DNA of 32,000 nt from the NCBI RefSeq assembly GCF_018687495.1, contig NZ_CP061293.1, positions 1,721,242 through 1,753,241 on the forward strand. Reading direction: 5' to 3'. Positions 11,050 through 32,000 of this stretch are shown piece by piece; the first letter of the stretch is position 1, and every line of letters begins with the position of its first letter. A model generated the notes under the pieces. It was not told where the DNA came from. It made no database searches and was given only the letters and a program-made list of their open reading frames with translations. The position numbers and the translations under genes are program-made. The DNA comes from Polynucleobacter sp. MWH-Svant-W18. GTDB taxonomy: Bacteria > Pseudomonadota > Gammaproteobacteria > Burkholderiales > Burkholderiaceae.

Positions 11050-11139
11050 ATTATTCTATCAGTCAAAGAAGTCTTATAAGCACTGATCTCATAATGTCGC
11101 TGGCTTGGGTAGCCGAACCGAAATTTAAAACGCTTGTAG

Positions 11140-11154
11140 GTCGTTTTAAACGGC
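11140..11154. repeat. imperfect GTCG-variant palindrome (GTCGTTTTAAACGGC)
   Basis: One mismatch in the right arm. Confidence 0.4.
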
Positions 11155-11330
11155 CATCAAATATCGTGGCGAAAATGCCACGATAAATATAAGAGAACAG
11201 TACTACTCTTATATTTTTGCCTAACTCATTGATAAAAAAGCGTTTCTTTTTCAGCCATTTTCGGTTGCCCAAACCGAATCTAAGAAAACATACTGTAACT
11301 CTGTATTTAATACATTTCAGGGAGATACAT

Positions 11331-12236: not shown

Positions 12237-12282
12237 ATAACCCTCATATTTGCTTACAAGTTGTTATTAGGATATCAAATTT

Positions 12283-12297
12283 GTCCTTTTAAAGGAC
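12283..12297. repeat. 15-bp palindrome GTCCTTTTAAAGGAC
   Basis: Perfect dyad 3 nt after the stop of 12300..13094. Shares the flank AAATTTGTCC with 537 and 3880. Confidence 0.8.
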
Positions 12298-12299
12298 AT

Positions 12300-13094
12300 T
12301 TACTGTGCGGGGAATTTACCTAGAACCACATTCTCAATTATTAGCTCGGCACTACTTAGATACCTTTTTACGCTTGAGCCCATGGTATTCCTCCTTGCGG
12401 CATTCATAGCTGGAAAGAGCTTTGGAGAAGTCATTGCTTTGGGGATTAAGGTTAAGCTCTCACCTATCTTCCAATTGGGCACTTTTGGCTTCTTTCCTTT
12501 GTGCTTAATGTATTCGTCATATACATCTAAGGTTTTCTCTAAATTTTGTACTGTGTAATTTCTAGCCAATTGATACTTGGCATTACTTTTAGTTGATCCC
12601 TTAGTTGGTCTACCACGTCCTGCCGTATGGCGCTCTTTTAATAGTTGTGCAAAACGACTTTGTAAATACCTTTTACTAGACGTTAGTGGTACAGCAAGAA
12701 TCATCACCTCATCTTTGCTCCAACCATCTTGCCACTGTGACTTATCTTCCAGCTCTGTTAATTTCATTGCCCCATAGTTTTCGGCGAATAAATTCGGTCC
12801 TCGCTCGTCCTTAGTCCACCACTTGTGAAAGTCATCATCTCTCACATCTCCAAAGTCTTTATATAGCTCGGCATGTTTTCCTTTGCCGCCACGCTCACAA
12901 CACTCTAAATATTCTTGATTACGGCGTAAGAACTGCCACCACCAGTAATAAGGACTGCGCTTTTGATAACCAAGTGGCAGTCTTTTGTTTTTTGTACCAA
13001 ATATAGGGTACGGAGCGAGGAATCTTCTTGGCATTTTCTTGGCATGTAAATTGCAGGAATTTCTAATAGTATCAGAAATATACCCGTTCTGCAT
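12300..13094 (-). CDS. island regulator-like protein with W-x-F-L-R-R-N motif
   Basis: 264 aa. YYWWWQFLRRNQEYLE resembles the WEFLRRNPxY motif I recall from DUF6499-type N-terminal domains of integrative-element regulators (recall only). Start codon uncertain, with Met21 as an alternative. Confidence 0.5.
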   Translation of the reverse strand: MQNGYISDTIRNSCNLHAKKMPRRFLAPYPIFGTKNKRLPLGYQKRSPYYWWWQFLRRNQEYLECCERGGKGKHAELYKDFGDVRDDDFHKWWTKDERGPNLFAENYGAMKLTELEDKSQWQDGWSKDEVMILAVPLTSSKRYLQSRFAQLLKERHTAGRGRPTKGSTKSNAKYQLARNYTVQNLEKTLDVYDEYIKHKGKKPKVPNWKIGESLTLIPKAMTSPKLFPAMNAARRNTMGSSVKRYLSSAELIIENVVLGKFPAQ

Positions 13095-13170
13095 TCTAAT
13101 TTAATTATGGCTAAGCGGTTAAATTTCTTAACAAGCAGTCATATTTCTTAATACAGAAAGAGAGTTAAAA

Positions 13171-13953
13171 ATGAATGCATTATTAAACGCAGTAGATACA
13201 ACCCCTGTTACAACAAACGTCCTTTTAAAGGACACAACGAAAGTAGCTAACGTTGCTGTTGGTACTACCGTTGCCCTTACTAATATGGAAGCAAATCGTA
13301 TTAGCTGGGAACAAGGTGCCTATAGAACAAGTAATCAAGCCTTATATGCAGTATTGGGCGATTGCTTGGCTTTTTGTGGTGACCTGACACTTCCAGAAGC
13401 TAAACAACGTAGCGAATCTTTAGAGTCTTTCTATAAAGATCGTGGCTACACATATAAAAAGGATCTCCCATTAGCGACACGTGTAGTGCGTGCTGTTTTT
13501 GGATCTAGAGATCGCCGCCGTATCAGCACCTACTCTTTGGTTATTCGTCAGGCAATGAAAGAGAAAGTTTTGATAACTGACTTTTCAGCATGGGTGGAAG
13601 AGCGTGGCGGCGTTCAAGAGATCAGTCTTGGTAAGAGCGCCACTTACATCAAGCCTGCGGCCAAAGCTGAGATTGCAAAAAACAATCTAAAAGGCAAAAC
13701 ACCGATTGGCTATGCCAAGTCCGAATTGCTCTCACATGTTGCTGATGCTCAGTACCTAGGTGATATGTGCGTACTTTTAGCGGAGCAACAGGCTGACGGC
13801 AGTTTTGGTGTCTATGCAGTTTTGCGTCAAGACGGACTGGTTAAGTCTGCCTTTACCTCTTTGTATGCAGTTGGCAAAGAGCTTGAAGATAAAGCTAGGG
13901 CAGAGGTCAAAGCGGCAAATGATGCAGATGGCGCGGTTGCTAAATCTGCTTAA
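13171..13953 (+). CDS. hypothetical protein, first gene of the AAA+ module
   Basis: 260-aa ORF with AAAGAGAG upstream of the ATG. 18-nt gap to the ATPase gene. Contains a copy of the 15-bp palindrome in codons 17-21. Confidence 0.55.
   Translation: MNALLNAVDTTPVTTNVLLKDTTKVANVAVGTTVALTNMEANRISWEQGAYRTSNQALYAVLGDCLAFCGDLTLPEAKQRSESLESFYKDRGYTYKKDLPLATRVVRAVFGSRDRRRISTYSLVIRQAMKEKVLITDFSAWVEERGGVQEISLGKSATYIKPAAKAEIAKNNLKGKTPIGYAKSELLSHVADAQYLGDMCVLLAEQQADGSFGVYAVLRQDGLVKSAFTSLYAVGKELEDKARAEVKAANDADGAVAKSA
13219..13233. repeat. 15-bp palindrome inside a coding region
   Basis: GTCCTTTTAAAGGAC encodes V-L-L-K-D of 13171..13953. It is the only intragenic copy in the window. Confidence 0.8.
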
Positions 13954-13971
13954 TTAATCAAGGGGAATGTT

Positions 13972-14685
13972 ATGAGCGTTCCCCATTCTTATTTGAAAGG
14001 AATACAAATGTTTACGAAAGGAAATAATCATGAGCCTAAAACAATTGATGACATCATCTTTGGAAATAATGAATCTAAATTGCGGATTGAAGATATTGTC
14101 TCGGGTGCCGAAGAATTACCTTACAGCGGCAAATCAGCGATTCTTTTATACGGAGTCTTTGGGACAGGCAAAACCACACTGGCCAAAATGCTACCTAACC
14201 ACATTGAATATGGCAAAACTAAAGAAGAGTTAGTTTGGGATCCAGTGTTTATAGGCTGTCAGCAGGGCTTTAATGGGCCACAGCTAATGACTAAGATTGA
14301 TGCAATCATGACAACAATGTCGCTAAACGTCAGCGGCCTTCATTACTTCATCCTTGATGAGGTGGATAACTTAACCAAGCTGGCGCAACAAAGTTTGAAA
14401 ACGGCCTTGAATACGACATTAGGTGTATTTGTGCTCACAACAAACAATGTGTCGCAACTAGACAAAGGCATGTTAGATCGTTGCATCTTAGTTGAGATGA
14501 ATGCGGCAAATCCGAATGCTTATTTGGATATTGCCAAATCCATTGCCAATGAAGCAGGCATTTCGTTATCTAGTGATGAGCTGTTGCCTACTATTCAAGG
14601 GGCTAATGGGTCATTCAGAAACCTGTTTCATAACGTTGACAGGCTGGCGCGCCGCAAAAAAACTTCATCAATTTGCACTCCTTAA
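13972..14685 (+). CDS. AAA+ ATPase, clamp-loader/RFC-like
   Basis: Walker A is LLYGVFGTGKTTLAK and Walker B is HYFILDEVDNL. AQQSLKTALN and VLTTNN follow, as in clamp-loader small subunits. AAGGGG lies upstream of the ATG. Confidence 0.75.
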   Translation: MSVPHSYLKGIQMFTKGNNHEPKTIDDIIFGNNESKLRIEDIVSGAEELPYSGKSAILLYGVFGTGKTTLAKMLPNHIEYGKTKEELVWDPVFIGCQQGFNGPQLMTKIDAIMTTMSLNVSGLHYFILDEVDNLTKLAQQSLKTALNTTLGVFVLTTNNVSQLDKGMLDRCILVEMNAANPNAYLDIAKSIANEAGISLSSDELLPTIQGANGSFRNLFHNVDRLARRKKTSSICTP

Positions 14686-19439: not shown

Positions 19440-19515
19440 TGGTGGCCCGGGGCGGAATCGAACCACCGACACAAGGATTTTCAATCCTCTGCTCTACCGA
19501 CTGAGCTACCAGGCC
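19440..19515 (-). tRNA. tRNA-Phe (GAA)
   Basis: The reverse complement GGCCTGGTAGCTCAGTCGGTAGAGCAGAGGATTGAAAATCCTTGTGTCGGTGGTTCGATTCCGCCCCGGGCCACCA folds into a cloverleaf by hand. Features: 7-bp acceptor stem with one G-U, anticodon loop TTGAAAA, encoded CCA. Confidence 0.95.
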
Positions 19516-19644
19516 AAGACTTGGAATTATAGCGGAACTGTTTTTAAGCTGTCTAAATGTGTCCACTGTGGTTAACTCTTCTAAAAAGCTATTGATCCTG
19601 CGGCTTGGTGGGGATTTTCTATCCTGTCTGCGGTAAGCGTTGCG

Positions 19645-19689
19645 TAGAGGATAACTAATCCTCTATCTATCGAGGCTTGATATGAGCGG
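19645..19689. repeat. junction repeat A (hairpin plus ATCCTCTATCTATCGAGGCTTGA)
   Basis: TAGAGGAT-AACTA-ATCCTCTA hairpin. 19658..19680 matches 22606..22628 at 22/23 positions and resembles the tRNA-Phe segment ATCCTCTGCTCTACCGA. Confidence 0.7.
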
Positions 19690-19720: not shown

Positions 19721-21766
19721 TTAAAACTTAAACCTTAATTCAGCGCCACCACCGTATTCATGACCATATGTGTTGTATGAGGCAACAACACCTATGCGTG
19801 CAGAAATTTCTTTCGTAATTCCGCCTTGAATACCCAAGCCCACCATATTAGAAACTGGTCCCATGTTAGCGCCGACTTGAGCAAATGATTGGGTATTGCC
19901 GTTAAAGGAAGTGGTTGCTGTCACTGTATGAGCTGAAGCGCTGTTGGCATACCAGTCATAACCAAACTTATAAAACCCAATTAAAGACAGTGGGTCATTT
20001 GTACCCTTTAGTAGCGGGTAAATAAAATCTGCTCCAGCAAATGTCACTGCAGTGTAAGCGGTTGCTGAATTAATACCGTAGTTAAAGGTATTACCACCCT
20101 GCTCACTTGCGCCACCCATCCAGAGCTGCGAGTAAGAAGCTCCTAGAAATGGTGACACAGTAAAGTTTTGAGCTTGATATGCTTTAGCCAGCTTTGCAGC
20201 TGCATATACTCCATTAGATTTAAATGAGCTAGTTGCATTACCGCCGACTAAATCTCCCACATTGGGAGCGCTTCTATTGGCATTGGTGCTGCCATACATA
20301 TATCCCAAAGCTCCAGAGAGCTTTACTTGCTCAGCAAAATTGAGCGCACCATATAAGCCAGCATAAAAGTTCGTTGTGTTGAAATTTTGAGTAACCTGCT
20401 GACTCTCAGTCATCGATGTACTACCGGTGCCTGCAAAAACGCCGAATCCGCCATCCTTAGAGCGCTTAATGTCACCACCAAAAATAACGTCATACAAGTT
20501 ATATCCAAAGCCAGCAAGGTTGTTGTAATTATTTACTGTTCCCTTAACTGCCGCAGCATCAGCCCAGATATAGCGACCTTCGTCATCTTGATAAACCTTG
20601 GTGGATGGTGATGCACTCATTGGTGCATGGATGCGGTCCATTACAGTATTGGTAATGTGCGCCATTTGCTCAAGTCCAATAGTCATATTAGATGAGTAAC
20701 CTTCAGCGTGAACGTTTTGCAACTGATTTACTTGAGCTTGCGTTAAACCACTGACCGCTGAACCTATTGTTACCCCATTGGATTGCACAGTGGCATTGGC
20801 TGCTTGGCCAGCAAATACATACGCTAAATTTGTACCGGCACTACTTCCAGCAACTACTGGCGATGCGGCGACTGTCTTAGTTGTTTGTAAATCCCAAGTA
20901 GTTCCTGATGAATTATTTAAAACCCATGAAGTAGTAACCAGGCCGCCGACAAAAGCGCCAGTAGTGGTGGCTGTATTGATATTTAAAGCAGAAAATCCAT
21001 TCAAAACTGAACCATAGGTAGTTGTATTGAGTGGAATAGTTGATTGTGAAGCGATCCCAAAATCCATTGTCCCAGAACCCGATTGAAGACGTATCTGACC
21101 ATAATCAGTTGGACTATTAATGATTACATTGTATGTACCCGGAAGTTTCCCGTTATAAAAAAGGGAGCCATTTGAATTGTTAATTACCCCAATTGTTCCT
21201 CCATTCTGGATTCCTTCTACTCCACCACTGATTCTCCCTGTATTGGTGATAGTGTTGATTGTCCCTGCGTTGGCGATACCATAAGTGGAACCAGATCCAA
21301 TTACTCCCGAATTGATGATCGATCCAATATAACCCCCCGCTTGGTTTTGAATAGCATTGCCCCCAGTTGGCGTTATGGATCCAGCATTAGTTAGGGTCGT
21401 AATTGAGCCAGATGGCCCGACGGTAACACCACCGGAACCAGTAAAGCTGCCAATCGTCCCGTTATTCACAAAATTCCCTACTGGAGTACCAATAGCAACT
21501 GAAGCAGTAGAGCCAGAATTAATTGTTCCATTATTAATAAATGATGAAAATGTTCCGCCAGTCGTAACCCTCACGGAGTAGATCCCCGTTGAACTAATGG
21601 CAAAATCATTAACAAGCACACCTGCATTTGAATTGATTACCAAGTTTGTGCAGTTAGCAGTTGGGCTTGTATTGTCAGTACAAGATACCGCTAAGCTGAT
21701 ATTGGCGTAGCCAACTCCAAAGGCAATCAATGCTGCTTGTATTAGGGACAGTAATTTTATTTTCAT
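19721..21766 (-). CDS. autotransporter (type Va secretion) protein
   Basis: 681 aa with a signal peptide. The Gly/Asn/Thr-rich passenger has repeated G-x-I-x-N-x-G-T-I units. The C-terminal beta-barrel ends in ELRFKF. Confidence 0.85.
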   Translation of the reverse strand: MKIKLLSLIQAALIAFGVGYANISLAVSCTDNTSPTANCTNLVINSNAGVLVNDFAISSTGIYSVRVTTGGTFSSFINNGTINSGSTASVAIGTPVGNFVNNGTIGSFTGSGGVTVGPSGSITTLTNAGSITPTGGNAIQNQAGGYIGSIINSGVIGSGSTYGIANAGTINTITNTGRISGGVEGIQNGGTIGVINNSNGSLFYNGKLPGTYNVIINSPTDYGQIRLQSGSGTMDFGIASQSTIPLNTTTYGSVLNGFSALNINTATTTGAFVGGLVTTSWVLNNSSGTTWDLQTTKTVAASPVVAGSSAGTNLAYVFAGQAANATVQSNGVTIGSAVSGLTQAQVNQLQNVHAEGYSSNMTIGLEQMAHITNTVMDRIHAPMSASPSTKVYQDDEGRYIWADAAAVKGTVNNYNNLAGFGYNLYDVIFGGDIKRSKDGGFGVFAGTGSTSMTESQQVTQNFNTTNFYAGLYGALNFAEQVKLSGALGYMYGSTNANRSAPNVGDLVGGNATSSFKSNGVYAAAKLAKAYQAQNFTVSPFLGASYSQLWMGGASEQGGNTFNYGINSATAYTAVTFAGADFIYPLLKGTNDPLSLIGFYKFGYDWYANSASAHTVTATTSFNGNTQSFAQVGANMGPVSNMVGLGIQGGITKEISARIGVVASYNTYGHEYGGGAELRFKF

Positions 21767-21771
21767 TATAT

Positions 21772-22146
21772 TTACTCGTTTTTATAAACATTAACTATGC
21801 CACCACAAGCGGCAAAACATTGCCTGTAGGATTCATCACAATTCCAATAGTTTGGATTGACTGAACAATACTGTGGATTAGGATTACATTTTTTTACGTC
21901 ATCATGACTTTGCGCACGGTTTACGCAAGCCTGATAGCTGAAGCTATTTTGCTGATGGCAGGTATTTACATTTGCTTGCGCTTGGGCTTGAGCACCGTTA
22001 TAGCAAACATTCTTAGTATTCATGCACTGGACCGCACAAGTCTTTCCAGACTCACTGTGCGGAGCAATATATTCGTAGCGATAGGTAGTACAGGAACCAA
22101 GCAATAAGACTGCTAAACAGGATGCTGTAAGTAGCTTAATATTCAT
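21772..22146 (-). CDS. Cys-rich lipoprotein
   Basis: 124 aa with the lipobox LLGSC and 11 further Cys. 5-nt gap to the autotransporter gene. Confidence 0.6.
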   Translation of the reverse strand: MNIKLLTASCLAVLLLGSCTTYRYEYIAPHSESGKTCAVQCMNTKNVCYNGAQAQAQANVNTCHQQNSFSYQACVNRAQSHDDVKKCNPNPQYCSVNPNYWNCDESYRQCFAACGGIVNVYKNE

Positions 22147-22182
22147 GCAGATAGATCATTATTAGAATTGAAGGTATTTTAT

Positions 22183-22515
22183 ATGTTTAGAGTCCTATTC
22201 GCCCTACATTTGTGCATATCCTTACCTGTTTTAGCGCTAGAAAAGGCTCAGGGTGTTGTTTACTGTCATGGCAAAACTGTTCTAGAGTACCGACCAGTCA
22301 ACCCTGAGAAGGATGGAACTGCGTCTGATGTTGATTTGACCGTTAATGGCAAGACCTTTCGCTTCATGACAGCCTACTCTTGGTTCGGGGCTAATCAAGC
22401 AGCTCCCAAGGGATTCAAGTTCGCAATTCTTGGTGAAAAGCAATTTGATCCGTTGCTAGTATTTGATGGCTACCTTGTAGATGCCAATAAGAATAAATAC
22501 ATTAAGTGCAATTAA
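22183..22515 (+). CDS. small secreted protein
   Basis: The ATG at 22183 is preceded by GAAGG. Signal peptide MFRVLFALHLCISLPVLA. The track start at 22168 is a TTG. Confidence 0.55.
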   Translation: MFRVLFALHLCISLPVLALEKAQGVVYCHGKTVLEYRPVNPEKDGTASDVDLTVNGKTFRFMTAYSWFGANQAAPKGFKFAILGEKQFDPLLVFDGYLVDANKNKYIKCN

Positions 22516-22548: not shown

Positions 22549-22639
22549 AGCGTCCCATAACTAGACGCCGAATAAATATGTTCCATTTAGAACAGGTAAT
22601 TAACTATCCTCTATCTAACGAGGCTTGACAGGATGAGGG
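22549..22639. repeat. junction repeat B (left boundary of the nuclease/protease cassette)
   Basis: 22549..22597 (AGCGTCCCATAACTAGACGCC...TTCCATTTAGAACA) is homologous to 29535..29580. 22606..22639 (ATCCTCTATCTAACGAGGCTTGACAGGATGAGGG) matches repeat A. Confidence 0.7.
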
Positions 22640-22648
22640 TAGCCTGAA

Positions 22649-22837
22649 TTATTTAATTGCCATATCAATAAGTTGCTTGGTATCGCTATCTATTGCTCGC
22701 GCCTTTTTAATCCAGCTTTGGCTACTCAGACAAGCATCAAGCATTCGCTTTACGGCAGCAGGATGGCTAGCACAATCTGCAAATCTAAGCCAAACTCCAC
22801 TATCAGCTTGATACTCAATTATTGCTGTTGTACTCAT
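22649..22837 (-). CDS. small hypothetical protein (last gene of cassette)
   Basis: 62-aa ORF, same strand as the cluster and 40 nt downstream of it. No motif. Confidence 0.4.
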   Translation of the reverse strand: MSTTAIIEYQADSGVWLRFADCASHPAAVKRMLDACLSSQSWIKKARAIDSDTKQLIDMAIK

Positions 22838-22877: not shown

Positions 22878-23312
22878 CTATAGAGGATATCTCTCGCCTA
22901 TTTCTGCTTGCAAAATTCCAGCTTCAGTTAATCTGAATTTATTTTTTAGCCCAATTAAATAGTCCGAATTAAATTCCTTCATTTCTCTCGGTATTGTCTT
23001 GGGATCTTTCGCAATCTTGATTAAGGCATAGGCTGGAGTGCCAGATTTAATCAAATCAATATGTCTGATTCTTTCATTTCTAGCGGTTGACGCTTCACTC
23101 ACTCCACTCCAAAGTTTTTCATCCCATAAAACATCCACCCAAGTTGGGGACTTTGGGTCCTTAGGGTCATCCCGCTTGATCTCATCTTGCCAAATGGACA
23201 AATAAACAGCGGATCCATCTGACTTGACTGCACCCCAGCTCCAACGATTATTGACCATAGGAGCTTCTAATTTATTTTCAAAAAACTCGGTGAGACTCAG
23301 TATTGATGCCAT
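22878..23312 (-). CDS. hypothetical protein
   Basis: 144-aa ORF with beta-rich patterning (NNRWSWGAV, VYLSIWQDE, AYALIKIAKD). Family not recognised. Confidence 0.5.
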   Translation of the reverse strand: MASILSLTEFFENKLEAPMVNNRWSWGAVKSDGSAVYLSIWQDEIKRDDPKDPKSPTWVDVLWDEKLWSGVSEASTARNERIRHIDLIKSGTPAYALIKIAKDPKTIPREMKEFNSDYLIGLKNKFRLTEAGILQAEIGERYPL

Positions 23313-23343: not shown

Positions 23344-23763
23344 TTAAGATTTATATAGGGCAAATACATCAAACGCCACCTTATATTTGTCTAAATCTTT
23401 TTTGCCTTCATTCTGAAATTGAGCAATCTCTTTTCCAACAAGCTCCATCAATTGTTGAATCTCTGAGCTCGTAATTTCATCTGGCGGCATATATCCCTCA
23501 GGATTCATTACATAAAAATTTTCTCTGTAAAAATCATCCTTTTCATGGCGAATTGAGCATCTAATTAAAGTGGGTACATTTGGGTCTGGCTCATAATTTG
23601 CAAATCCATCGATCATCGCTTGAGATAAGTCTAGAATGATTTTCTCATTAATATTAGAGCCTAAATTAAATTCGCACTCCAGAGCAATTTCGTTATTGTC
23701 AACCGCCTTACTCATTCTTTTAGACAACTTGGTTACTAATTCTGCGTCGCTATAGCCACTCAT
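23344..23763 (-). CDS. hypothetical protein
   Basis: 139-aa ORF. No recognised motif. Confidence 0.5.
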   Translation of the reverse strand: MSGYSDAELVTKLSKRMSKAVDNNEIALECEFNLGSNINEKIILDLSQAMIDGFANYEPDPNVPTLIRCSIRHEKDDFYRENFYVMNPEGYMPPDEITSSEIQQLMELVGKEIAQFQNEGKKDLDKYKVAFDVFALYKS

Positions 23764-23859: not shown

Positions 23860-24795
23860 TTAATCAAAGAAAATATCGTCTTTATCCTGCCGCATTCCAG
23901 CCATAAAAGCGCCAGCAAATTTCTCTAAGGTAGTAACAAATGCTTTTGTATCAATACCAAACTGGGTAGATAAAAAGTATCTGCCGTAAAGGTAGAAACC
24001 ATCAGATTCTGATCCAGCTGCAAAAAACTGAGGGCGAGCAATTGTAGAATTCAGTAAATTGATAAAGCTATACATATCTACCTCGCTCACGCCTGGCTTA
24101 ACGCCAGCATAAGTATGAAATTGAAGTAGGTTTGTATCGGCATCAAATGTCATGAAAGTACCAAATTCAATATGATCATTTGAGACATATAGATCTTGAT
24201 CATCATCTAATGATGGCGCAAAACCAGCATCATCTAATACCTTTTTCAAAGCCTCAATACAAATATCGCCTGAATTAATAAAATTTTCATTTTTCATATT
24301 TTCTTTTCCTTTTTCTAGAATTTTTATAGCGCCCTCATAATCTATTTCACCATTTGCAATGCCAACTATTGATGGAGCCAGAAACTCAATGTATTCACTC
24401 ATTTCATCCAACATCTTATTGAGCTCGCTACCAATATCCTCAACACCCTTCTCCAAAGCCTCAATAGATCGTGCATGAATATAATTTAAAACTCCTGATT
24501 TAGAAAAATATAAATTTCCTTCATCTTTCCTAAAGTGGAGACAAAGATCGATAATTTCTTGTGTTGCCTTTTCAGGAATACTAAATCTAACTGTGCCAAC
24601 CAATGTCAACATTCCCTCCTCATCCCCATCTGCCTCATCTGCGATTAACAAGCAGTCAAGACCATACTCGCCTCCTGCAGCATATCCAAAGGATAGACTG
24701 GAGCCTTTTCCATCCTCCCTTTCCTCTGGCCTCTCCTCCCATCCAATAGCTTCAAGCCACTTAATTATTTCTTTTTTTATTACTTTCCTAGCCAT
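23860..24795 (-). CDS. tandem YbjN-like (T3SS-chaperone-like fold) protein
   Basis: The ATG at 24795 is preceded by GGGGAG (the track start at 24810 lacks an SD). There are two repeats of the YbjN pattern. The C-terminal half (ALKKVLDDAGF..DLYVSNDHIEFGTFMTFDADTNLLQFHTYAGV..MYSFINLLNS..YLYGRYFLSTQFGID) is the clearer match. Confidence 0.45.
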   Translation of the reverse strand: MARKVIKKEIIKWLEAIGWEERPEEREDGKGSSLSFGYAAGGEYGLDCLLIADEADGDEEGMLTLVGTVRFSIPEKATQEIIDLCLHFRKDEGNLYFSKSGVLNYIHARSIEALEKGVEDIGSELNKMLDEMSEYIEFLAPSIVGIANGEIDYEGAIKILEKGKENMKNENFINSGDICIEALKKVLDDAGFAPSLDDDQDLYVSNDHIEFGTFMTFDADTNLLQFHTYAGVKPGVSEVDMYSFINLLNSTIARPQFFAAGSESDGFYLYGRYFLSTQFGIDTKAFVTTLEKFAGAFMAGMRQDKDDIFFD

Positions 24796-24822
24796 ATACT
24801 CCCCAATCATAGAAAACTATTA

Positions 24823-25815
24823 TTAATAAATTCTCTTCTCTTTCGGTAGCCATTTAACAGATTCATCAAGCCAATCTGATACAGCACTTGACCTAAGAAT
24901 GGACTCTCTAACCCAATCGCGCATTAGATAATTACCTGTATCTGCATATTTTTTTAATACATTAGGGCATATTGAATCAAGAGAAATTAAATAATGTAAT
25001 TTTGATTTCTCTAGCCACTCAGAGAGATTTTTTTGATCTTCAACGCTAGATATTTTTAATTTAACTTGAACACTAATATCTTCACCCGTAGGTTTTGCCA
25101 TTCCATCCATATTGAAATCAGGTGGAACTCTTGCAAAGAAATCAATGTCCTTAAAAAAGCCGCCCTTATATGCTGGCACAAAGCATTTTTTATCTTCAAA
25201 TAATTTTGCAAGTAAAGTCTCAAACTCAACGCTTGAGAGGCAATCAAGCGGATCAACTCTAAAACCATCTTGCCATTTCTTGGTCAAAAATTGAATTGCA
25301 GCAATGTTTCCAGAATACTTTTCATTCTTTCCAATCTCCGCAAATGTACGTCGGGAAAAAGCTGGGTTTGCCTTCATACTCGCAAGGATATATGGGACCT
25401 TTGAAACCGGCATTGGCTCAGAAAGCAATTCAATATCAAAGTATTTGGGCCAATCTATCCGATCGACCATGGCGCCCTTGTGTTTTTTAAATTTTATTTT
25501 TTCACATTCCTTTGGCTTCCCTATCATCCTATAAACCCAAACCATTCCAGAATCTATGGTGACTATATGAACTTCATATTTTTTTTCCTCTAAGTCTTCA
25601 TTGATTTTAAGAAATCTTAAAACTTCATTTTTTTGTTGGGTCTTTAATTTTTCTGAAAAATTGCCACTTAGAGTTTGCTCAACACTATCGCCTCCAAAAA
25701 AAATTGGAGCTCTTTTGCTAGCCAACCAAAATTCTGCAGGGCTCTGTCCATTAATGTTATAGCCTTCATAGGGATGCTTGATATTTAAATTAAAAAATTT
25801 TATTTTCTTATTCAT
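24823..25815 (-). CDS. unknown N-terminal domain fused to an Mrr-like PD-(D/E)XK nuclease domain
   Basis: 330 aa. SVEFETLLAKLFEDKK..YKGGFFKDIDFFAR..ISVQVKLK is the classic Mrr_cat pattern (FE..l, D-x-D, Q-x-K). The start ATG shares one nt with the stop of the upstream gene (TAATG). Confidence 0.6.
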   Translation of the reverse strand: MNKKIKFFNLNIKHPYEGYNINGQSPAEFWLASKRAPIFFGGDSVEQTLSGNFSEKLKTQQKNEVLRFLKINEDLEEKKYEVHIVTIDSGMVWVYRMIGKPKECEKIKFKKHKGAMVDRIDWPKYFDIELLSEPMPVSKVPYILASMKANPAFSRRTFAEIGKNEKYSGNIAAIQFLTKKWQDGFRVDPLDCLSSVEFETLLAKLFEDKKCFVPAYKGGFFKDIDFFARVPPDFNMDGMAKPTGEDISVQVKLKISSVEDQKNLSEWLEKSKLHYLISLDSICPNVLKKYADTGNYLMRDWVRESILRSSAVSDWLDESVKWLPKEKRIY

Positions 25816-27284
25816 TATTTTTTATAACTCTTAACTATCTCAACCATTGCCCACGTATCTTGTTCACAATATTTCAATAGATTTTTTCTAATTTCCTGCT
25901 TTTCTTTTTCTGCCATTTCATCAGAAACCAGCTGCTTGTAGGCTTCTTGTGCCATTCCACCGTTTTGCACCGCTAAATCTTTGTAACTTAGATTTGTGAC
26001 AGTTGGTAGCAATTTCTTAATCGACCAAGATCCTTTCATATCCGGGTGGTAGTAATGCTCCTTAGAGAGTTTGTATAAGTCAAAAAGTCTCTCTTCAATC
26101 TCTTTTAGCTTTGGCTGTAAATCAGGGAATAGTCGACCCATCTCCCTAATCCTCGATTGCTCAAAACTACTATAGACAAATATCGTCCCAGAACCACCCA
26201 ACACATTAATCAATGATTCGGTAAATTTACGTCTAGTATCCAGGCTCTCGGTATCTAAGAATTCTTTATGCTCAATGGCGGCTTCATCACTCTCAACGTG
26301 ACATGACCACTGAAAGGGTATTTGTGCAAAAGGACGAGTATTAGGAATTTTAGGAATGGCATAGCTTATGGTTTCAAAGTCTAAGTAAAAACGGGGATAA
26401 GCCAAGGCATCAATAGTTAACTTAGCGGCTGGATCTAGCTCTGCAATCCCTGACTTTGTAACTCTATGAACTCGAAGATGCCTTTCTTTTTCCAATAAAC
26501 CATCTGGCACTTCTCGCAGATCTTTATAGCCTGCAATTTTTAATTGCTCAACCACCTTAGCCGCATAAGGCAATATCTCAATGGGGTATTCCGTTTTTTC
26601 CTCAAAAGAAGAGCAATGCTCATAAAACGGACAGTCAAAAGGCTTGGTGCATTGATCTCCCGTTTTAATCTCTACTGGCTCATTTTTTAATGCTACTGTG
26701 CTCTTGGCATCGCTTAGCCACTCTGGGACCAGATCAACGAGGCTCTTTACTTCATCGGTGAGATTAACCTCTTCTAAAAATCCATCGTAATTATTGTCTC
26801 CGCCATACACAAATTGACTATTAATATGAGCTAGGTAGCTCATTACAGGCTTAGGCTGTGCATTTCTCAGTACCCACGTTTGAATTGCTACGTCCTGAAA
26901 TTGATAGGGCTTAACCGACGTAGAAGATTTAACTTCAACTAGCTTGTAATGTTTATCCTGCGGGAATAGCAAATCTACCCTAACCAGTAAGTCATCAGTA
27001 ATAAACGCGGGCTCAAATAGGGGAAGGTTTGGAGATTTACGTATCACCGCATCGGTTAAATCCAACGCCTCCTTAGAAGACTTGGTGCTAATAAACTCAC
27101 CCTCTGGTGATAGCTCTCTTGCTAAAGCGCCCACTTCATCCCCAGCAGCTATTCGCATCAAACTATCTGAATCCTGCTTAGCAAGCTCATGACGATACGT
27201 AGCTAACCAAAGCCTGCGTGGGCATTGAAGGTTTAAAAGAAGCTTTGACTTGGTTAGCAAAATAGCGTTGTTTAATTTATGCAC
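25815..27284 (-). CDS. DUF2779-type dual nuclease: Cas4-like PD-(D/E)XK with Fe-S cysteines, plus DEDD exonuclease
   Basis: 489 aa. The N-terminus has QCPRRLWL, RVDLLF..LVEVKSS (D..E-x-K) and CTKPFDCPFYEHC. The C-terminus has FYLDFETIS, VYSSFEQSRI and YCEQDTWAMVEIV (exo I-III). The GTG start overlaps the upstream gene by 8 nt. Confidence 0.7.
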   Translation of the reverse strand: MHKLNNAILLTKSKLLLNLQCPRRLWLATYRHELAKQDSDSLMRIAAGDEVGALARELSPEGEFISTKSSKEALDLTDAVIRKSPNLPLFEPAFITDDLLVRVDLLFPQDKHYKLVEVKSSTSVKPYQFQDVAIQTWVLRNAQPKPVMSYLAHINSQFVYGGDNNYDGFLEEVNLTDEVKSLVDLVPEWLSDAKSTVALKNEPVEIKTGDQCTKPFDCPFYEHCSSFEEKTEYPIEILPYAAKVVEQLKIAGYKDLREVPDGLLEKERHLRVHRVTKSGIAELDPAAKLTIDALAYPRFYLDFETISYAIPKIPNTRPFAQIPFQWSCHVESDEAAIEHKEFLDTESLDTRRKFTESLINVLGGSGTIFVYSSFEQSRIREMGRLFPDLQPKLKEIEERLFDLYKLSKEHYYHPDMKGSWSIKKLLPTVTNLSYKDLAVQNGGMAQEAYKQLVSDEMAEKEKQEIRKNLLKYCEQDTWAMVEIVKSYKK

Positions 27285-27882
27285 TCATCATTCTGACTAT
27301 TTCACTAATACCCTTTTGTAGTTGTGCGTCAGACATGGCGACAAAGCTTGCAATTGCCTCAGACTTTCCAACGGATATACCTTTAAGGCACAAACTTGAT
27401 TTATAGCGAACTGTTCCACTTCCGTCTTCATCGACATTCATCTCGAAGTTACCAAGAATCATGTCATTTAGATTTACCTCTCCAATGTAAGTGGCCATGT
27501 TTTCTGTCTCATCATCACTTAAGCCAGATAGCCCTGCTGGATAACAATAAAAGACTATCAAAGGATGGTTTGGATAGTATTGCTCGGTTACCTCAATAAA
27601 AACTGGAGCCTCCCTGGAAACGACCTCGGCAACATCATCATCCAAATCATTAAGGTTTAAGGTATAAGCAAGCGTTGCATTTTCTGAGTCTTCAGAAATA
27701 TCAATCGTATCCTCATTACCGAGAATCCCTTTCCACCAGCCCATAAGAGAGTAGGTTCCAACTTTAACTTCACGAGTTTTTGTCTCAATTTCACCAGTCT
27801 CTTCATTTTCAATTGTTTCTGATTGAATAAACTTAATACCGTGAAATTCATCCTCTTTTGGTAAGTCTTTTAATGAAGTCAT
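27277..27882 (-). CDS. acidic YbjN-like protein
   Basis: 201 aa. The acidic N-terminal half is followed by PVFIEVTEQYYPNHPLIVFYCYP..MATYIGEVNLNDMILGNFEMNVDEDGSGTVRYKSSL, which matches the YbjN-family pattern by eye. Confidence 0.45.
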   Translation of the reverse strand: MTSLKDLPKEDEFHGIKFIQSETIENEETGEIETKTREVKVGTYSLMGWWKGILGNEDTIDISEDSENATLAYTLNLNDLDDDVAEVVSREAPVFIEVTEQYYPNHPLIVFYCYPAGLSGLSDDETENMATYIGEVNLNDMILGNFEMNVDEDGSGTVRYKSSLCLKGISVGKSEAIASFVAMSDAQLQKGISEIVRMMSA

Positions 27883-27965: not shown

Positions 27966-29330
27966 TTAATGGGTCAATTGGGCTGATTGCGCAATCTTTT
28001 TGGAATATGTACTTTCCTTGTTGGAGAAGCCCATTTCCCTGAAGTCTTGATGTGTTAGTAACTTCTTATTTAATAGCTCGTTAACTATGAGCTCCAAGCT
28101 ATCGCGATGCTCTGTAAGCAAAAACCTTACAGCCTCGTATTGCTTTTCCAGCAAAGTGCGAGCTTGATTTGAATAATAATCATTAGTCTTGCTCGCTTCT
28201 CGGTCTGGGATGAAAAGATTGGAGCCTAAAAGCTCTTTCTCCCCGTGCACACAATCAAATCCGCCCTTAGTTACTAAATCAAATGCAATTCGTGATGCAC
28301 GCCTTAGATCGTCTTGCGCCAAGTGAACATCGACTTCAAGTTGTCCACAAATTAATTCTTCAGCTGCTCTGCCAGCTATTGCGATCCGAATTTTGGTGCA
28401 AGCCGCCTTAAATGAAAGAGGTCCTTCAGTCTCGTAGGCACGCTGATAGTCCTCTACAACTATGCCAACATACCCTTTACCAGGGAGAATAGTTGCAATC
28501 TCAGGAATATTTTTATTTCCCGATTCTAAAATCGTGACGAGTGCATGTCCCGCTTCGTGAACGGCAATCTGTAAATCGTGTTTATTTCTAGTGGACTCAT
28601 ATCCATCCCCAGTTCCACTTGTAACGAGGCGGTAAATATCTTGCCACTGTATTTGCCTGTTTTGAAAATGGGCAATACGCTTTAAGGCTGATGCCAGCAT
28701 ACCAATCCTTCTGAAAACTGGAAAATCAGAACATAGAATGCACCCCAGCCTATTCATTGAATTCAATATCGAGATATCAAACTTTTCAGTACCAACCAAG
28801 TCTATTAGGTCTTGCCCGATGAATTCTGGCGTTGGCTCCATCCACTGCAGATGGCGATCGAAGATCCCTTGATACCTAAAGCAAGTCGCAATATCTGCAT
28901 AACTGTCAGAAACTAAAACACAAACAATGGGTTTACCAACCAAATTTTTAAGAAATTCAGTGGTTTTTTTTTGCTTTTGGAGTGATTCGTCATCATTACT
29001 AGAAGATTGAATCCAATCACCAGATTCTATGAATACTATCTTTGGATAAGAAAAGTTTTTACCAACCAGATCTTCGATATCAAATATCTGCGTGGAATTT
29101 AAATATTGAAACCCAATATTTAATTGCTCACTTATCAATCTGATGGATTGTTCACAATCATCAGCGTCTTCTCCCTCTACGACTAAGCCGTGTCCAAGAA
29201 GCTCCCATCTGTCTTCAGGAAAAGATGCTCCAATAGTTTGCTTGAGCTCTTGTGTCCATTTCCACAAATATGTTTGCCTGTCTTTAGTCTTATCTAATAC
29301 TAGTTTCGTTGCAGGATAAATGGACGACAT
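27966..29330 (-). CDS. soluble FtsH-like protein: degenerate AAA+ module plus M41 zinc metalloprotease domain
   Basis: 454 aa with no TM segment. IAVHEAGHALV (HEXXH) and IAGRAAEELICG, LAQDDLRRASRIAFDLVTKGGF align with the FtsH protease domain. At the Walker A position it has GLVVEGEDADDCEQS instead of GPPGTGKT, and at Walker B it has IVFIESGD instead of hhhhDE. Confidence 0.75.
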   Translation of the reverse strand: MSSIYPATKLVLDKTKDRQTYLWKWTQELKQTIGASFPEDRWELLGHGLVVEGEDADDCEQSIRLISEQLNIGFQYLNSTQIFDIEDLVGKNFSYPKIVFIESGDWIQSSSNDDESLQKQKKTTEFLKNLVGKPIVCVLVSDSYADIATCFRYQGIFDRHLQWMEPTPEFIGQDLIDLVGTEKFDISILNSMNRLGCILCSDFPVFRRIGMLASALKRIAHFQNRQIQWQDIYRLVTSGTGDGYESTRNKHDLQIAVHEAGHALVTILESGNKNIPEIATILPGKGYVGIVVEDYQRAYETEGPLSFKAACTKIRIAIAGRAAEELICGQLEVDVHLAQDDLRRASRIAFDLVTKGGFDCVHGEKELLGSNLFIPDREASKTNDYYSNQARTLLEKQYEAVRFLLTEHRDSLELIVNELLNKKLLTHQDFREMGFSNKESTYSKKIAQSAQLTH

Positions 29331-29534
29331 TTTTTTCCTTTTCTTAGCGCAGTTTTTTTCAAGAATGGAAAACTGCCTCTTAATGCTTAACCTCTATTTT
29401 AAGAATTTAGCGAATTAAAGTAAAACTGATTTTTATTTAACAAATAAAAGAAGCGAGAAAAATATATGGAATTAAAGTCAAGTATTTTTTATATCTATGG
29501 CTTTAAATTTTGTGGGGGCTTGTTTCTTAATTCA

Positions 29535-29580
29535 AGCGTCTCGTAACTAGACGCTTAACTTTTTTATTCTAACTAGAACA
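29535..29580. repeat. right-hand copy of the cassette boundary repeat
   Basis: AGCGTCTCGTAACTAGACGCTT...TTCTAACTAGAACA is homologous to 22549..22597. Includes the hairpin AAGCGTCT-N7-AGACGCTT followed by a T-run. Confidence 0.65.
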
Positions 29581-29713
29581 CAAAATACCACGCCAACTCA
29601 ACGCTGCGGATGCCATTTGGGAAATATTTGAAACCGCTGCGAGCCACGAGATTCGGTGCTTGTAGGGCGGTTGGTCGCAACCAGCTTAGACCTAATGTGC
29701 AGAACTGTTTTAG

Positions 29714-29727
29714 TCCTCTATCCTACG
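29714..29727. repeat. junction repeat C (TCCTCTATCCTACG) fused to the tRNA 5' half
   Basis: Matches the TCCTCTATCT(A/T)(A/T)CG cores at 19659 and 22607. Directly abuts the anticodon-loop breakpoint. Confidence 0.55.
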
Positions 29728-29790
29728 TTTTCAATCCTCTGCTCTACCGACTGAGCTACCAGGCCAAGACTTGGGATTATAAATGAAACT
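29728..29790 (-). repeat. orphan 5' half of tRNA-Phe plus about 25 nt of upstream flank
   Basis: 29728..29765 is identical to 19478..19515 (anticodon loop to the 5' end). The next roughly 25 nt (AAGACTTGGGATTATAA..GAAACTG) resemble 19516..19540. Confidence 0.85.
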
Positions 29791-29812: not shown

Positions 29813-32000
29813 CTAAGCAGCATTTGTTTGATTCTTGGAGCGGGCGATATGCAATTTTCTGTAACTGTCGATTAAACGATGGTGTCTATCAAGCCCTTCC
29901 AGCCCTAAGCTAGTTGGGGTCAGGCCATAAAAGCGCACATCGCCACTTACTGAGCCGATGACAGCATCCATCCGCTCATTACCAAACATTCGTCGGAAGT
30001 TCGCTTCATAGTCATCCAGATCTAAATCTTCACTTAGGAGAACTTCAAGCACCCCATCTAATGCCTGATAAAACAATCTACGCTCTACGGCATTATCGTT
30101 ATATTGCAAGAATGCGCCCACCAATTCATGGGCCTCATCGAACTGCTTTAATGCAAGATGAATAAGAAGTTTTAACTCTAAAACTGTTAATTGCCCCCAA
30201 GGGGTATTCTCATCAAACTCGATGCCAATTAATGTTGCAATATCTCCGTACTCATCTAACTCGTTGTTCTCTAAACGCTCAAGTAGCGCAATGAGTTGTG
30301 CATCATCGAGGTCATGCAGATTCAAGATATCTTCTCGAAATAGCAAGGCCTTATTGGTGTTGTCCCAAATCAGATCCTCGACTGGATACACCTCGGAATA
30401 GCCAGGCACTAAGATTCGGCATGCAATAGCGCCCAGCTGATCATGTACTGCGACATAGACTTCTTTACCCATATCTTTGAGAATGCCAAATAATTTTTCA
30501 GCTTCCCCTACATTGGAATTTTCAGTCTTGCTCGTGAAATCCCACTCAACAAATTCGTAATCAGACTTCGCACTGAAAAAACGCCATGACACGATGCCGC
30601 TGGAATCAATAAAGTGCTCAACAAAGTTATTAGGCTCAGTTACCGCTTCACTTGCAAAAGTCGGTGGTGGCAAATCATTAAGGCCCTCTAAGCTGCGGCC
30701 CTGAAGTAGCTCGGTCAAACTTCTTTCTAGCGCCACCTCAAAGCTTGGGTGCGCGCCAAAAGAGGCGAAGACACCGCCCGTCCGTGGGTTCATTAAAGTA
30801 ACGCACATCACTGGATAGATTCCGCCCAGCGATGCGTCCTTTACTAGAACTGGAAAGCCTTGCTCTTCAAGCCCTCGAATGCCAGCAAGAATACTGGGGT
30901 ACTTCTCAAGCACTTCATGAGGCACATCTGGGAGTGCAATTTCCCCTTCCAGAATTTCACGTTTGACTGCTCGCTCAAAAATCTCTGAAAGACATTGCAC
31001 CTGGGCTTCGGCCAATGTATTTCCAGCGCTCATACCATTACTGACATACAGGTTTTCAACAAGATTTGTTGGGAAATATATCGTCTTACCATCCGACTGC
31101 CGCACAAAAGGTAAAGAACAAATGCCGCGCTGCGCATTACCTGAGTTGGTATCGATTAAGTGCGAAGCGCGCAACTCACCATCTGGATTAAAGATTTTTA
31201 AGCAGTACTCATCAAGAATTTCTGCTGGTATTGCATCCTTGCTACCCGGCTTAAACCATTGTTCATTTGGGTAATGCACAAATTCACTATTGGCGATGTC
31301 CTCACCCCAGAATGTGCCCGCATAAAAATGGTTATTGCTGAGCCGCTCAATATATTCGCCTAGCGCCGAGGCTAGGGCACTCTCTTTTGTTGCCCCTTTG
31401 CCGTTGGTAAAACACATAGGCGAGTGTGCATCCCGGATATGCAAAGACCAAACGTTAGGAATGATGTTTCGCCAAGAGGCAATTTCTATCTTGATTCCCA
31501 GATTTGCCAATAGGCCGGACATATTGGCAATCGTTTGCTCCAGCGGCAGGTCCTTGCCTACGATATGCGTATTCGCATTTACGTCAGGCCTTAGGGTCAA
31601 TAAAGTTTGAGCATCTGCATCGAGGTTTTTTACTTCTTCGATGACGAACTCTGGGCCCTCTTGCACCACTTTTTTAACCGTACAACGCTCGATGGAACGC
31701 AAAATCCCTTGGCGATCATGAGCGGAAATATCTTCGGGCAGTTCAACCTGAATCTTAAAAATTTGCTTGTAGCGATTTTCGGGATCAACAATATTGTTTT
31801 GGGAAAGGCGGATATGTTCAGTAGAAATATTGCGAGTGTCGCAATACAACTTGACAAAATATGCTGCGCATAAAGCCGATGACGCAAGGAAGTAGTCAAA
31901 AGGGCCTGGAGCAGAGCCATCCCCCTTATAACGTATAGGCTGGTCCGCAATCACCGTGAAGTCGTCAAACTTGGCTTCTAAACGGAACTTGTCGAGAAAG
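29813..32000 (-). CDS. ycaO: OsmC-domain / YcaO fusion protein (5' end outside the window)
   Basis: Collinear with E. coli YcaO (IEIASWRNIIPNVWSLHIRD, CFTNGKGATKESALASALGEYIERLS, YVSNGMSAGNT, FASFGAHPSFEVALERSLTELLQGR). The N-terminal GDGSAPGPFDYFLASSALCAAYF is mid-OsmC. The frame stays open from the GTG at 31954 to the window end. Confidence 0.9.
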   Translation of the reverse strand, partial: FLDKFRLEAKFDDFTVIADQPIRYKGDGSAPGPFDYFLASSALCAAYFVKLYCDTRNISTEHIRLSQNNIVDPENRYKQIFKIQVELPEDISAHDRQGILRSIERCTVKKVVQEGPEFVIEEVKNLDADAQTLLTLRPDVNANTHIVGKDLPLEQTIANMSGLLANLGIKIEIASWRNIIPNVWSLHIRDAHSPMCFTNGKGATKESALASALGEYIERLSNNHFYAGTFWGEDIANSEFVHYPNEQWFKPGSKDAIPAEILDEYCLKIFNPDGELRASHLIDTNSGNAQRGICSLPFVRQSDGKTIYFPTNLVENLYVSNGMSAGNTLAEAQVQCLSEIFERAVKREILEGEIALPDVPHEVLEKYPSILAGIRGLEEQGFPVLVKDASLGGIYPVMCVTLMNPRTGGVFASFGAHPSFEVALERSLTELLQGRSLEGLNDLPPPTFASEAVTEPNNFVEHFIDSSGIVSWRFFSAKSDYEFVEWDFTSKTENSNVGEAEKLFGILKDMGKEVYVAVHDQLGAIACRILVPGYSEVYPVEDLIWDNTNKALLFREDILNLHDLDDAQLIALLERLENNELDEYGDIATLIGIEFDENTPWGQLTVLELKLLIHLALKQFDEAHELVGAFLQYNDNAVERRLFYQALDGVLEVLLSEDLDLDDYEANFRRMFGNERMDAVIGSVSGDVRFYGLTPTSLGLEGLDRHHRLIDSYRKLHIARSKNQTNAA

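Follow-up and report, generated by a model that had tools for sequence, protein, structure and literature searches.

Here we describe an FtsH-derived protease encoded in a stretch of 32,000 nucleotides (the window) from the freshwater bacterium Polynucleobacter sp. MWH-Svant-W18 (contig NZ_CP061293.1, positions 1,721,242 to 1,753,241). The gene is an ATG-to-stop open reading frame (ORF) on the minus strand which fills exactly the window positions 27966-29330 and codes for 454 amino acids. We consider it almost certain that the protein is an M41 protease derived from FtsH which has an intact zinc site, a dead AAA module and no membrane anchor. The protein matches QWD77981.1 / WP_215374548.1 of the same strain exactly, an entry annotated as 'hypothetical protein'. 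The M41 peptidase and the AAA+ fold are known; new are the family, which has not been described before, and a candidate defence system around it.

The protease half is the part which is most readily recognized. A first reading of the window from its letters alone (the sequence-only reading) had taken the C-terminal half for an FtsH-like M41 protease domain. All motifs quoted there are present in the re-translated protein, that is, GLVVEGEDADDCEQS at residues 48-62, IVFIESGD at 98-105, HEAGHAL at 258-264, GRAAEEL.CG at 320-329 and DDLRRASRIAFDLVTKGGF at 340-358. The Pfam domain Peptidase M41 (PF01434) is found at residues 249-432 (28035-28586, minus strand) with an E-value of 6.7e-20 and 72.2 bits against a cutoff of 29.9, and the match covers model positions 5-190 of 191. 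The best matches in a sequence search of the PDB are the FtsH protease domains 2di4 and 4ww0 (E about 1e-12). H258, E259 and H262 of the HEAGH motif (28545-28559), E324, the glutamate of GRxAEE (28359-28361), and D341, the aspartate of the D-L motif (28308-28310), align with the zinc-site residues of FtsH. Across 150 representatives of the family, which is delineated below, both histidines are invariant (150/150 each), E259 and E324 are each kept in 149 and D341 in 148, and PF01434 matches 85 out of 85 representatives. Judged by this conservation, the zinc site of the protein is intact.

The N-terminal half is far less obvious. Pfam and NCBIfam find no domain before residue 247, PHROGs and PADLOC are also blank for this half, and its AAA origin is revealed by profile-profile and structure comparison only. 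With hhalign, residues 1-240 alone align to the AAA part of FtsH over 164 columns (probability 98.3%, E 2.6e-14), which agrees with the AAA-like spacing that the sequence-only reading had noted. Because the N-terminal half stays significant by itself, the AAA assignment is independent of the M41 domain. The degenerate AAA large subdomain comprises residues 15-165 (28836-29288, minus strand) and is followed by a lid-like helical subdomain at residues 166-240 (28611-28835, minus strand), which is collinear with the FtsH lid in hhalign and shows helices at 168-238 in the structural model. The order of strands and helices in this model, an alpha-beta-alpha core with a helical lid, is collinear with a classic-clade AAA module.

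Within this fold both Walker motifs are lost, as the sequence-only reading had proposed. In the hhalign alignment GEDADDCE (residues 53-60; 29151-29174, minus strand; translation checked) stands opposite GPPGTGKT of FtsH, and IVFIESGDW (residues 98-106; 29013-29039, minus strand) stands opposite IIFIDEIDA. The pattern GxxxxGK[ST] of an intact P-loop is not found anywhere in the 454 residues, and its three matches in other family members all fall outside the Walker A position. In the 150 representatives the column of the Walker A lysine holds Cys (37), Ala (30), Val (17), Gly (15), Leu (9) and other residues, and Lys in none. The column of the Walker B aspartate is mostly Glu (78), followed by Pro (15), Lys (12) and Asp (8), with Glu in the window protein (IVFIES); the column of the catalytic Walker B glutamate holds Pro (66), Ala (16) and Gln (15), with Ser in the window protein. 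The sensor-1 asparagine is replaced by Asp in a family column that varies between Lys, Asp, Arg and Glu. Opposite the pore-1 motif MFVG of FtsH stands I-E-D-L, beside which about ten residues are deleted and the loop alignment is less certain than elsewhere; here the pore-loop aromatic position aligns to Glu. Directly after the former Walker B strand follows W106, which is kept in 138 of the 150 representatives; together with W25, which is also near-invariant, it may occupy the pocket that once held the nucleotide.

What is left of the second region of homology is FRYQGIFDR (residues 151-159; 28854-28880, minus strand). Its only survivors are F157-D158-R159, with D158 kept in 133 and R159 in 137 of the 150 representatives. 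Position 156, opposite the arginine of GR-F in FtsH and hence the position of the second arginine finger, is Ile in the window protein and mostly Leu, Ala, Gly, Val or Ile in the family (Arg in 16/150). The conserved R152 is shifted by one residue against the position which is taken for the first arginine finger of FtsH. We also considered that the arginine fingers of this region are retained but rejected this, as the family reads R-x-x-G-x-F-D-R and FtsH R-P-G-R-F-D-R. The F-D-R triad, R152 and the persisting AAA fold could be taken to mean that the N-terminal module still binds or hydrolyses nucleotide at a non-canonical site and that the enzyme is energy-dependent. We regard this as highly improbable. 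The replacement of the P-loop is acidic and poorly conserved (Asp at column 55 in 22 of 30 members), the lysine is missing without exception, Walker B, sensor-1 and the pore-loop elements are all gone, and Pfam AAA fails on 84 of 85 family representatives, the single detection being weak.

A membrane anchor is missing as well. The maximum hydropathy in a 19-residue Kyte-Doolittle window is 1.25 and lies within a core beta strand, about 14 residues precede the AAA fold, the alignment begins at FtsH residue 161, and the extracytoplasmic domain of FtsH (PF06480) is not matched in the protein. Since the hydropathy is low and the N-terminus so short, there is no transmembrane segment, anchor or periplasmic domain, in line with what had been read from the sequence, and the protease is predicted to be soluble.

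The two halves belong together as one FtsH-like unit. A family profile built from 30 members and a profile of 16 FtsH proteins give a single collinear alignment from residues 15-437 to FtsH 161-609 (hhalign, E 8e-43), which covers the whole cytosolic part of FtsH. From the family alignment, AlphaFold2 (AF2) gives a confident model (predicted local distance difference test, pLDDT, 85.3; predicted template-modelling score, pTM, 0.79). Superposed on FtsH through a Foldseek search of the PDB, it finds full cytosolic FtsH, AFG3L2, YME1 and FtsHi as best matches, with template-modelling scores of 0.64-0.69 over about 450 columns and 17-21% identity to FtsH. By homology the protein belongs to peptidase family M41, and it carries the AAA+ fold as a pseudo-enzyme. 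Every membrane or ATPase feature that defines FtsH proper fails in it, so far as alignment and hydropathy can tell. It is not the housekeeping FtsH, as had been suspected. The FtsH equivalog model TIGR01241 reaches 60.9 bits against a cutoff of 600 and matches with model positions 413-597 only. In a neighbour-joining tree of the M41 domains alone, computed from 46 members and 16 FtsH proteins (a small and solely bacterial FtsH set), the family stands apart from FtsH in 49 of 50 bootstraps.

The retained fold, which includes the M41 oligomerization domain, and the presence of FtsHi complex structures among the top structural matches bring to mind that the protein might act on the FtsH of its host. 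It could be a soluble subunit which assembles into the FtsH ring or competes with it and so alters degradation, as FtsHi joins FtsH12 in chloroplasts. With the low identity to FtsH and the separate clade this is quite unlikely, and a strictly conserved catalytic site would be needless for a pure poison or adaptor subunit.

We then have to ask how large the family is. An exhaustive search with a hidden Markov model (HMM) through 1.84 billion representatives puts the family at 150 or more clusters when sequences are grouped at 50% identity. The 150 proteins score 300-575 bits against at most 140 bits for true FtsH; in nearly all of them the match begins near profile position 10-25 and runs to about 450, and a dozen or so are truncated. 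A further 206 proteins at E <= 1e-30 must be a mixture of more members and the best FtsH matches. The family boundary is sharp in a profile search too, where members reach 428-591 bits and the best true FtsH 140 bits. A word-indexed protein search had given about 35 clusters and underestimates the family compared with the exhaustive scan. The full-length relatives from a single-sequence search are about 450 amino acids long, go down to 24% identity and have M41 as their sole Pfam domain. Our scan of a genome collection recovered at least two true members (loci L001 and L002) and gives no basis for statements on taxonomic spread. In the phage, plasmid and IMG/VR collections we found no family member and only matches at the level of FtsH, a result that speaks neither for nor against defence.

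Mean pairwise identity within the family rises from 24% in the AAA core over 30% in the lid to 36% in the M41 domain. The N-terminal half nevertheless carries its own near-invariant positions in the 150 representatives: W25, G46, P96, W106, F157, R159, G180, G196 and R218. Database entries call the members hypothetical or M41 domain-containing proteins. Neither Pfam nor NCBIfam has a model that spans the N-terminal half of the family, PADLOC has none for the family, and we found no description of it in the literature. The sequence-only reading had allowed for a decayed ftsH fragment that occurs only here. Motif loss is in fact all that could be said for a functionless pseudogene, a reading which we dismiss. 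The frame is intact, at least 150 diverged full-length clusters exist, catalytic and N-terminal residues are near-invariant, and the gene neighbourhoods are conserved; the family data refute it. To judge from this pattern of conservation, it is a real family under selection.

The protease gene opens a tight operon on the minus strand in which it is followed by genes for a 201-amino acid protein, a DUF2779 nuclease and proteins of 330, 316, 139 and 144 amino acids and by a 62-amino acid ORF; the gaps between the genes are 83, -8, -1, 12, 96 and 31 nt. The nuclease (489 amino acids; 25815-27284, minus strand) is assigned by Pfam DUF2779 (E 1e-43) and is composed of a Cas4-like PD-(D/E)xK half and an RNase H-like half of the 3′-5′ exonuclease type. 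In its sequence we read four cysteines (C21/C212/C218/C224) and D104...E116-V-K118 for the Cas4-like half and D302-F-E304 for the RNase H-like half, and PADLOC gives a weak Cas4 match (9e-6). The DUF2779 family has been described as Cas4-like and 3′-5′ exonuclease-like and is uncharacterised (PMC13621843, PMC3985635); one of its members is quasi-essential in the minimal cell JCVI-syn3.0 (PMC13621843).

The second gene of the operon, directly downstream of the protease gene, codes for an acidic protein of 201 amino acids (isoelectric point 4.2; 27277-27882, minus strand), and the end of this gene reaches 8 nt into the start of the nuclease gene. It had been suggested that YbjN-like proteins are partners of the protease. 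In 23 of the 150 representatives (about 15%) the protease carries an N-terminal extension of about 170-220 residues, and all 23 extensions are mutually homologous (phmmer). Pfam calls YbjN in nine of them at E <= 1e-3; the N-terminal domains of the clusters P0023, P0033 and P0172 and of the Gallionellaceae member at L001 pass with 28-43 bits against a cutoff of 22. An HMM of the fused extensions matches a stand-alone protein which is encoded beside an unfused family member at locus L090 (L090_177, 64.5 bits). It also matches two proteins of the window operon. One is the 201-amino acid protein, which reaches 22.7 bits with this HMM (E 1e-6 to 1e-7, the databases searched being small); Pfam has no match for this protein, and its AF2 model finds YbjN 6vu7, DR_1245 4h5b and AmyR 5fr7 as top Foldseek matches (E 4e-4). 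The other is the acidic 316-amino acid protein (23860-24810, minus strand), with 20.3 bits, whose residues 186-298 are a YbjN domain according to Pfam (PF10722, 24.1 bits against a cutoff of 22). That the domain is fused to the protease in some members and adjoins it in others is classic evidence that the two are partners in function and probably in physical contact. The earlier suggestion thereby gains indirect support. In the literature we found no YbjN protein that is linked to a protease.

Further evidence comes from the gene neighbourhoods, which we compared at 14 distinct loci, a small sample for which raw counts are given without a background rate. The sequence-only reading had asked whether this clade is consistently linked to nucleases. 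A DUF2779 gene lies within a few genes of the protease at 10 of the 14 loci, a RNase_H_2/SF1-helicase relative is present at three, and one or both types of nuclease are found at 11, so that the link is there; at the three loci without either nuclease the contigs stop at most 1.3 kb from the protease gene. A WYL-WCX protein adjoins at six of the 14 loci; the usual order is M41, WYL, DUF2779, and the genes are 8-31 nt apart. At L092 (CP015016) this compact trio spans 10001-14441. Tyrosine integrases are located within 10 kb at seven. Among the other neighbours are a DNA methylase, an HNH protein, a Nhi/AbiO-like helicase, GmrSD and an Old-family nuclease at L092 (P. asymbioticus), McrB and McrC at L001, BrxA, BrxB and BrxC at L002, and a type IIG restriction-modification enzyme at L081. 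Toxin-antitoxin genes (PIN/Phd, HipA) are found near members at two further loci. The family accompanies a nuclease in defence islands of bacteria and so is probably one component of an uncharacterised anti-virus system; we put the role as a defence module at an even chance or just short of it.

Mobile islands of this kind also suggest another function. The protease could be a regulator of the island itself which, like ImmA, IrrE/PprI and CapP, cuts a repressor of the XRE-type helix-turn-helix (HTH) or WYL kind after DNA damage and so induces excision, replication or expression of the cargo without being an immune effector. Pairs of a HEXXH protease and a repressor are a known theme, members occur in integrase-bearing islands, some of which have AlpA, PrimPol/DUF3987 or DUF5906 replication genes and small HTH genes, and the WYL-WCX regulators would be at hand as targets at the six loci just mentioned. 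However, the protease shares its operon with a nuclease and not with an HTH gene, and the module sits at varying positions in islands with unrelated integrases, as cargo does. The island of the window, about 10.2 kb in size, contains no integrase gene, no repressor and no WYL gene, and the operon is still intact and conserved. Flanking genes are, moreover, often classical defence genes. We therefore regard a regulatory protease of the island as unlikely.

Slightly less probable still is an addiction module that stabilizes the island in the manner of toxin-antitoxin systems and has no dedicated anti-phage role. In such a module toxicity would come from the nuclease, the acidic YbjN-like protein would serve as antitoxin, and how fast the antitoxin is turned over would depend on the protease. 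The translational coupling of the small acidic protein to the nuclease would fit, as would the toxin-antitoxin genes near other members and the retention of the module in an island which has lost its integrase. Yet eight-gene versions and three-gene versions with a WYL sensor exceed the usual complexity of such systems, and restriction-modification, BREX, McrBC, GmrSD and Old neighbours are typical of defence. Toxin-antitoxin and abortive-infection roles can, however, coexist.

We suggest that the module works as follows. The protease would act without ATP, its AAA module being a folded scaffold without elements for nucleotide binding, hydrolysis or threading. Rings would probably assemble via the M41 domains, by analogy with the FtsH protease domain which hexamerizes on its own, and the dead AAA tier would be a gate or docking surface and not a motor. 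Since such a protease cannot unfold proteins, only an extended or presented polypeptide can be cut. The partner which presents the substrate or regulates the protease would most likely be the YbjN-like protein, whose fold resembles type III secretion chaperones and which could be adaptor, substrate or both. The constant effector of the mobile module would be the DUF2779 Cas4-like/RNase H-like nuclease, to which another subtype adds the WYL-WCX regulator. The protease would control the nuclease post-translationally, for instance through the removal, upon a trigger, of an acidic YbjN-like protein that serves as inhibitor or adaptor, and the module would act in defence against phages or other mobile DNA. 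Oligomeric state, ATP independence, substrate and defence role are what we infer here. Taken together, an FtsH-derived, ATP-independent protease which with a YbjN-like adaptor controls a nuclease in a candidate new defence module is the reading we favour, by a modest degree over its negation. A more specific version is less likely than not: the protein would be a ring-shaped, energy-free FtsH derivative of an undescribed anti-phage system, the dead tier would dock the YbjN-like adaptor, and infection would lead to proteolytic release or activation of the DUF2779 effector.

Several observations weigh against this proposal. The accessory genes vary between subtypes (YbjN-like, WYL or extra GIY-YIG or PD-(D/E)xK nucleases). 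When we matched the accessory proteins across subtypes with BLAST, only the pairs 330/340, 144/144 and 201/177 emerged, and common to all subtypes are the protease and the nuclease only. Because the accessory genes differ so greatly, one shared mechanism is an assumption. The F-D-R triad and the nearby conserved R152 survive in what was the inter-subunit region, and a residual nucleotide-linked or inter-subunit role is conceivable for that reason. The model of the 201-amino acid protein is moderately confident (pLDDT 66.9) and its HMM score is modest. PADLOC v2 gives no match for the M41 protein or the 201-, 330-, 316-, 139- and 144-amino acid proteins of the window, nor for the M41 homologue at L092 or its 661-amino acid DUF2779 partner; its only matches are the weak Cas4 match of the window nuclease and a WYL match of the L092 regulator. 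The argument for a defence role is, in the end, solely one of guilt by association.

Some features of the related loci deserve mention. At L091, which harbours a relative of 71% identity, the gene after the protease (1629-2360) has a weak match to the uracil-DNA-glycosylase superfamily (22 bits, cutoff 24.3), and the island also has PrimPol and DUF3987 replication genes as in P4-like satellites. At L088 (6057-16377) and likewise at L089 a compact island is located between trpE-like and trpG-like genes, which is consistent with an insertion into the trp gene cluster. The L088 island has the order integrase, AlpA, two genes without assignment, M41, WYL, DUF2779 and an HTH gene, and this type of contig was found in 24 metagenome contigs. 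In the WYL subtype a divergently oriented gene just ahead of the protease gene codes for an unannotated protein family of 228-254 amino acids with 32-45% identity (L081 7013-7777, L088 9162-9848, L092 9131-9865), which may be a fourth conserved component of this subtype. In Alcanivoracaceae and basal Moraxellaceae the WYL regulator DdaA has been reported to control few genes, among them 'ftsH' as well as recA, recC, sbcC and an N-6 DNA methylase (PMC12392091). In view of the adjacency of M41 and WYL genes these DdaA-regulated 'ftsH' genes might be members of the pseudo-AAA/M41 family.

Of the remaining operon genes in the window, the one for the 330-amino acid protein (24823-25815, minus strand) shares a stop/start base with the nuclease gene. 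The protein is basic, has no family assignment and no match in Pfam, NCBIfam, PHROGs or PADLOC; it is 41% identical to a 340-amino acid protein encoded downstream of DUF2779 at L090. A divergent WYL regulator was considered for it and rejected (hhalign probability 0.2%). Functions could not be assigned to the 139-amino acid protein (23344-23763, minus strand) and the 144-amino acid protein (22878-23312, minus strand). Both are conserved in the operon of the closest relative and the latter also at L090 (74% identity). The 62-amino acid ORF (22649-22837, minus strand) is probably the last gene of the operon; a gene of 62 codons stands at the same place in the contig of the closest relative, a match by position only. 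In the relative of 89% identity (P0001, ENA contig) a 276-amino acid GIY-YIG nuclease of the LEM-3 type replaces the 330- and 316-amino acid genes (23860-25815) between the same flanking genes. As one gene can stand in for these two, the operon has a swappable slot. A sigma-70-like promoter, TTTACT-17-TAAAAT (29396-29424, minus strand), is found 66 nt upstream of the start codon of the protease gene; it is only a candidate because such matches are no commoner in the region than in shuffled sequences.

The operon lies in an island whose ends are marked by a direct repeat of 54 nt (98% identity) at 19478-19531 and 29728-29781, 10,250 nt apart from start to start. The copy at 29728-29781 (minus strand) consists of the leader and the 5′ half of a tRNA-Phe; the other boundary is the intact tRNA-Phe (19440-19515) together with its leader (19440-19531, minus strand), as identified by ARAGORN, Rfam and the repeat. 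The duplicated part of the tRNA runs up to the anticodon loop, with the partial copy upstream and the intact gene downstream, which is the mirror image of the usual integration at the 3′ end of a tRNA gene. Within the island G+C falls as low as 0.35-0.37. Short sequences related to each other are found at 22549-22633, 29535-29580, 29700-29727 and 19658-19685 and thus at three places, namely the inner edge of the island by the tRNA fragment, just past the operon and beside the intact tRNA. They comprise a stretch containing GATAGAGGA and a hairpin AGCGTC..TAACTAGACGCT followed by GTTCTA. This arrangement suggests that two elements have accreted in tandem, the protease operon and a segment with an autotransporter. 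The latter (681 amino acids; 19721-21766, minus strand) has a hydrolase-like passenger domain and no close relatives (a 90% cluster of one). The island further codes for a Cys-rich putative lipoprotein of 124 amino acids (21772-22146, minus strand) and a secreted protein of 115 amino acids (22168-22515, plus strand). It is flanked by the chromosomal gene of an OsmC-YcaO fusion (29813-31954, minus strand; TIGR03549, 1396 bits), the product of which also matches the YcaO accessory factor for the methylthiolation of ribosomal protein S12.

FtsH is the textbook example of a protease which depends on its own ATP-driven unfoldase. Here a whole clade keeps the M41 site and the AAA fold and drops all ATPase and threading elements, which raises the question of how the M41 chamber is fed and regulated without energy. 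The constant linkage is a first functional handle on the widespread but uncharacterised DUF2779 nuclease family, and the linkage to YbjN-like and WYL proteins is a similar handle on YbjN-type proteins. The family nominates a candidate defence system of three to eight genes which can be tested. Should the protease indeed sense infection and activate the nuclease, it would be the first immune protease built on M41 and would show that an AAA+ protease can be turned in nature into a gated, energy-free one.

Compared with FtsH, AFG3L2 and YME1 (MEROPS M41), the window protein has the same order of AAA large subdomain, lid and M41 domain, the same predicted fold and the same zinc site of HExxH, the glutamate of GRxAEE and the aspartate of D-L. 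It differs in that transmembrane helices, periplasmic domain, Walker A and B, sensor-1, the second arginine finger and the pore-1 aromatic residue are missing. It also forms its own clade, and its gene resides on mobile islands and not in the core genome. Like the chloroplast FtsHi proteins (Ycf2-FtsHi motor; 8xku, 8xks) it is an FtsH paralogue which has lost one of two activities and kept the fold. FtsHi proteins have kept the ATPase and lost the zinc site of the protease. The loss is thus reciprocal, and the pseudo-AAA/M41 family is the mirror image of the protease-dead FtsHi, which are membrane-anchored and eukaryotic.

In the anti-phage system IetAS, IetA is paired with a separate serine protease, IetS. 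IetA is likewise an FtsH-derived component of a bacterial defence system, a role which for the window protein is deduced. IetA carries FtsH_ext, AAA and lid domains (PMC10924106). By these described domains it is set apart from the window protein, a predicted soluble protein in which M41 is retained and the AAA module is dead. A concept is shared with CalpL, the Lon-SAVED protease of type III CRISPR systems, in which the protease half of an AAA+ protease acts without unfoldase on a specific partner in defence. CalpL uses the serine-lysine dyad of Lon, has lost the ATPase domain altogether and has gained a SAVED sensor, whereas the window protein is an M41 zinc protease that retains the AAA fold as a pseudo-enzyme.

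ImmA, IrrE (PprI) and CapP are also soluble zinc metalloproteases with genes on mobile elements or beside defence systems; each works through cleavage of a single regulatory partner, an XRE repressor. Their fold is unrelated (COG2856, not M41), and the window family is constantly accompanied by a nuclease and by a YbjN-like or WYL protein. As to the partner, the fused domains and the C-terminal half of the 316-amino acid protein pass Pfam YbjN and so resemble E. coli YbjN (6vu7), Deinococcus DR_1245 (4h5b) and Erwinia AmyR (5fr7), whereas the 201-amino acid protein stays below Pfam significance and differs by 65 additional N-terminal residues which are very acidic and poorly modelled.

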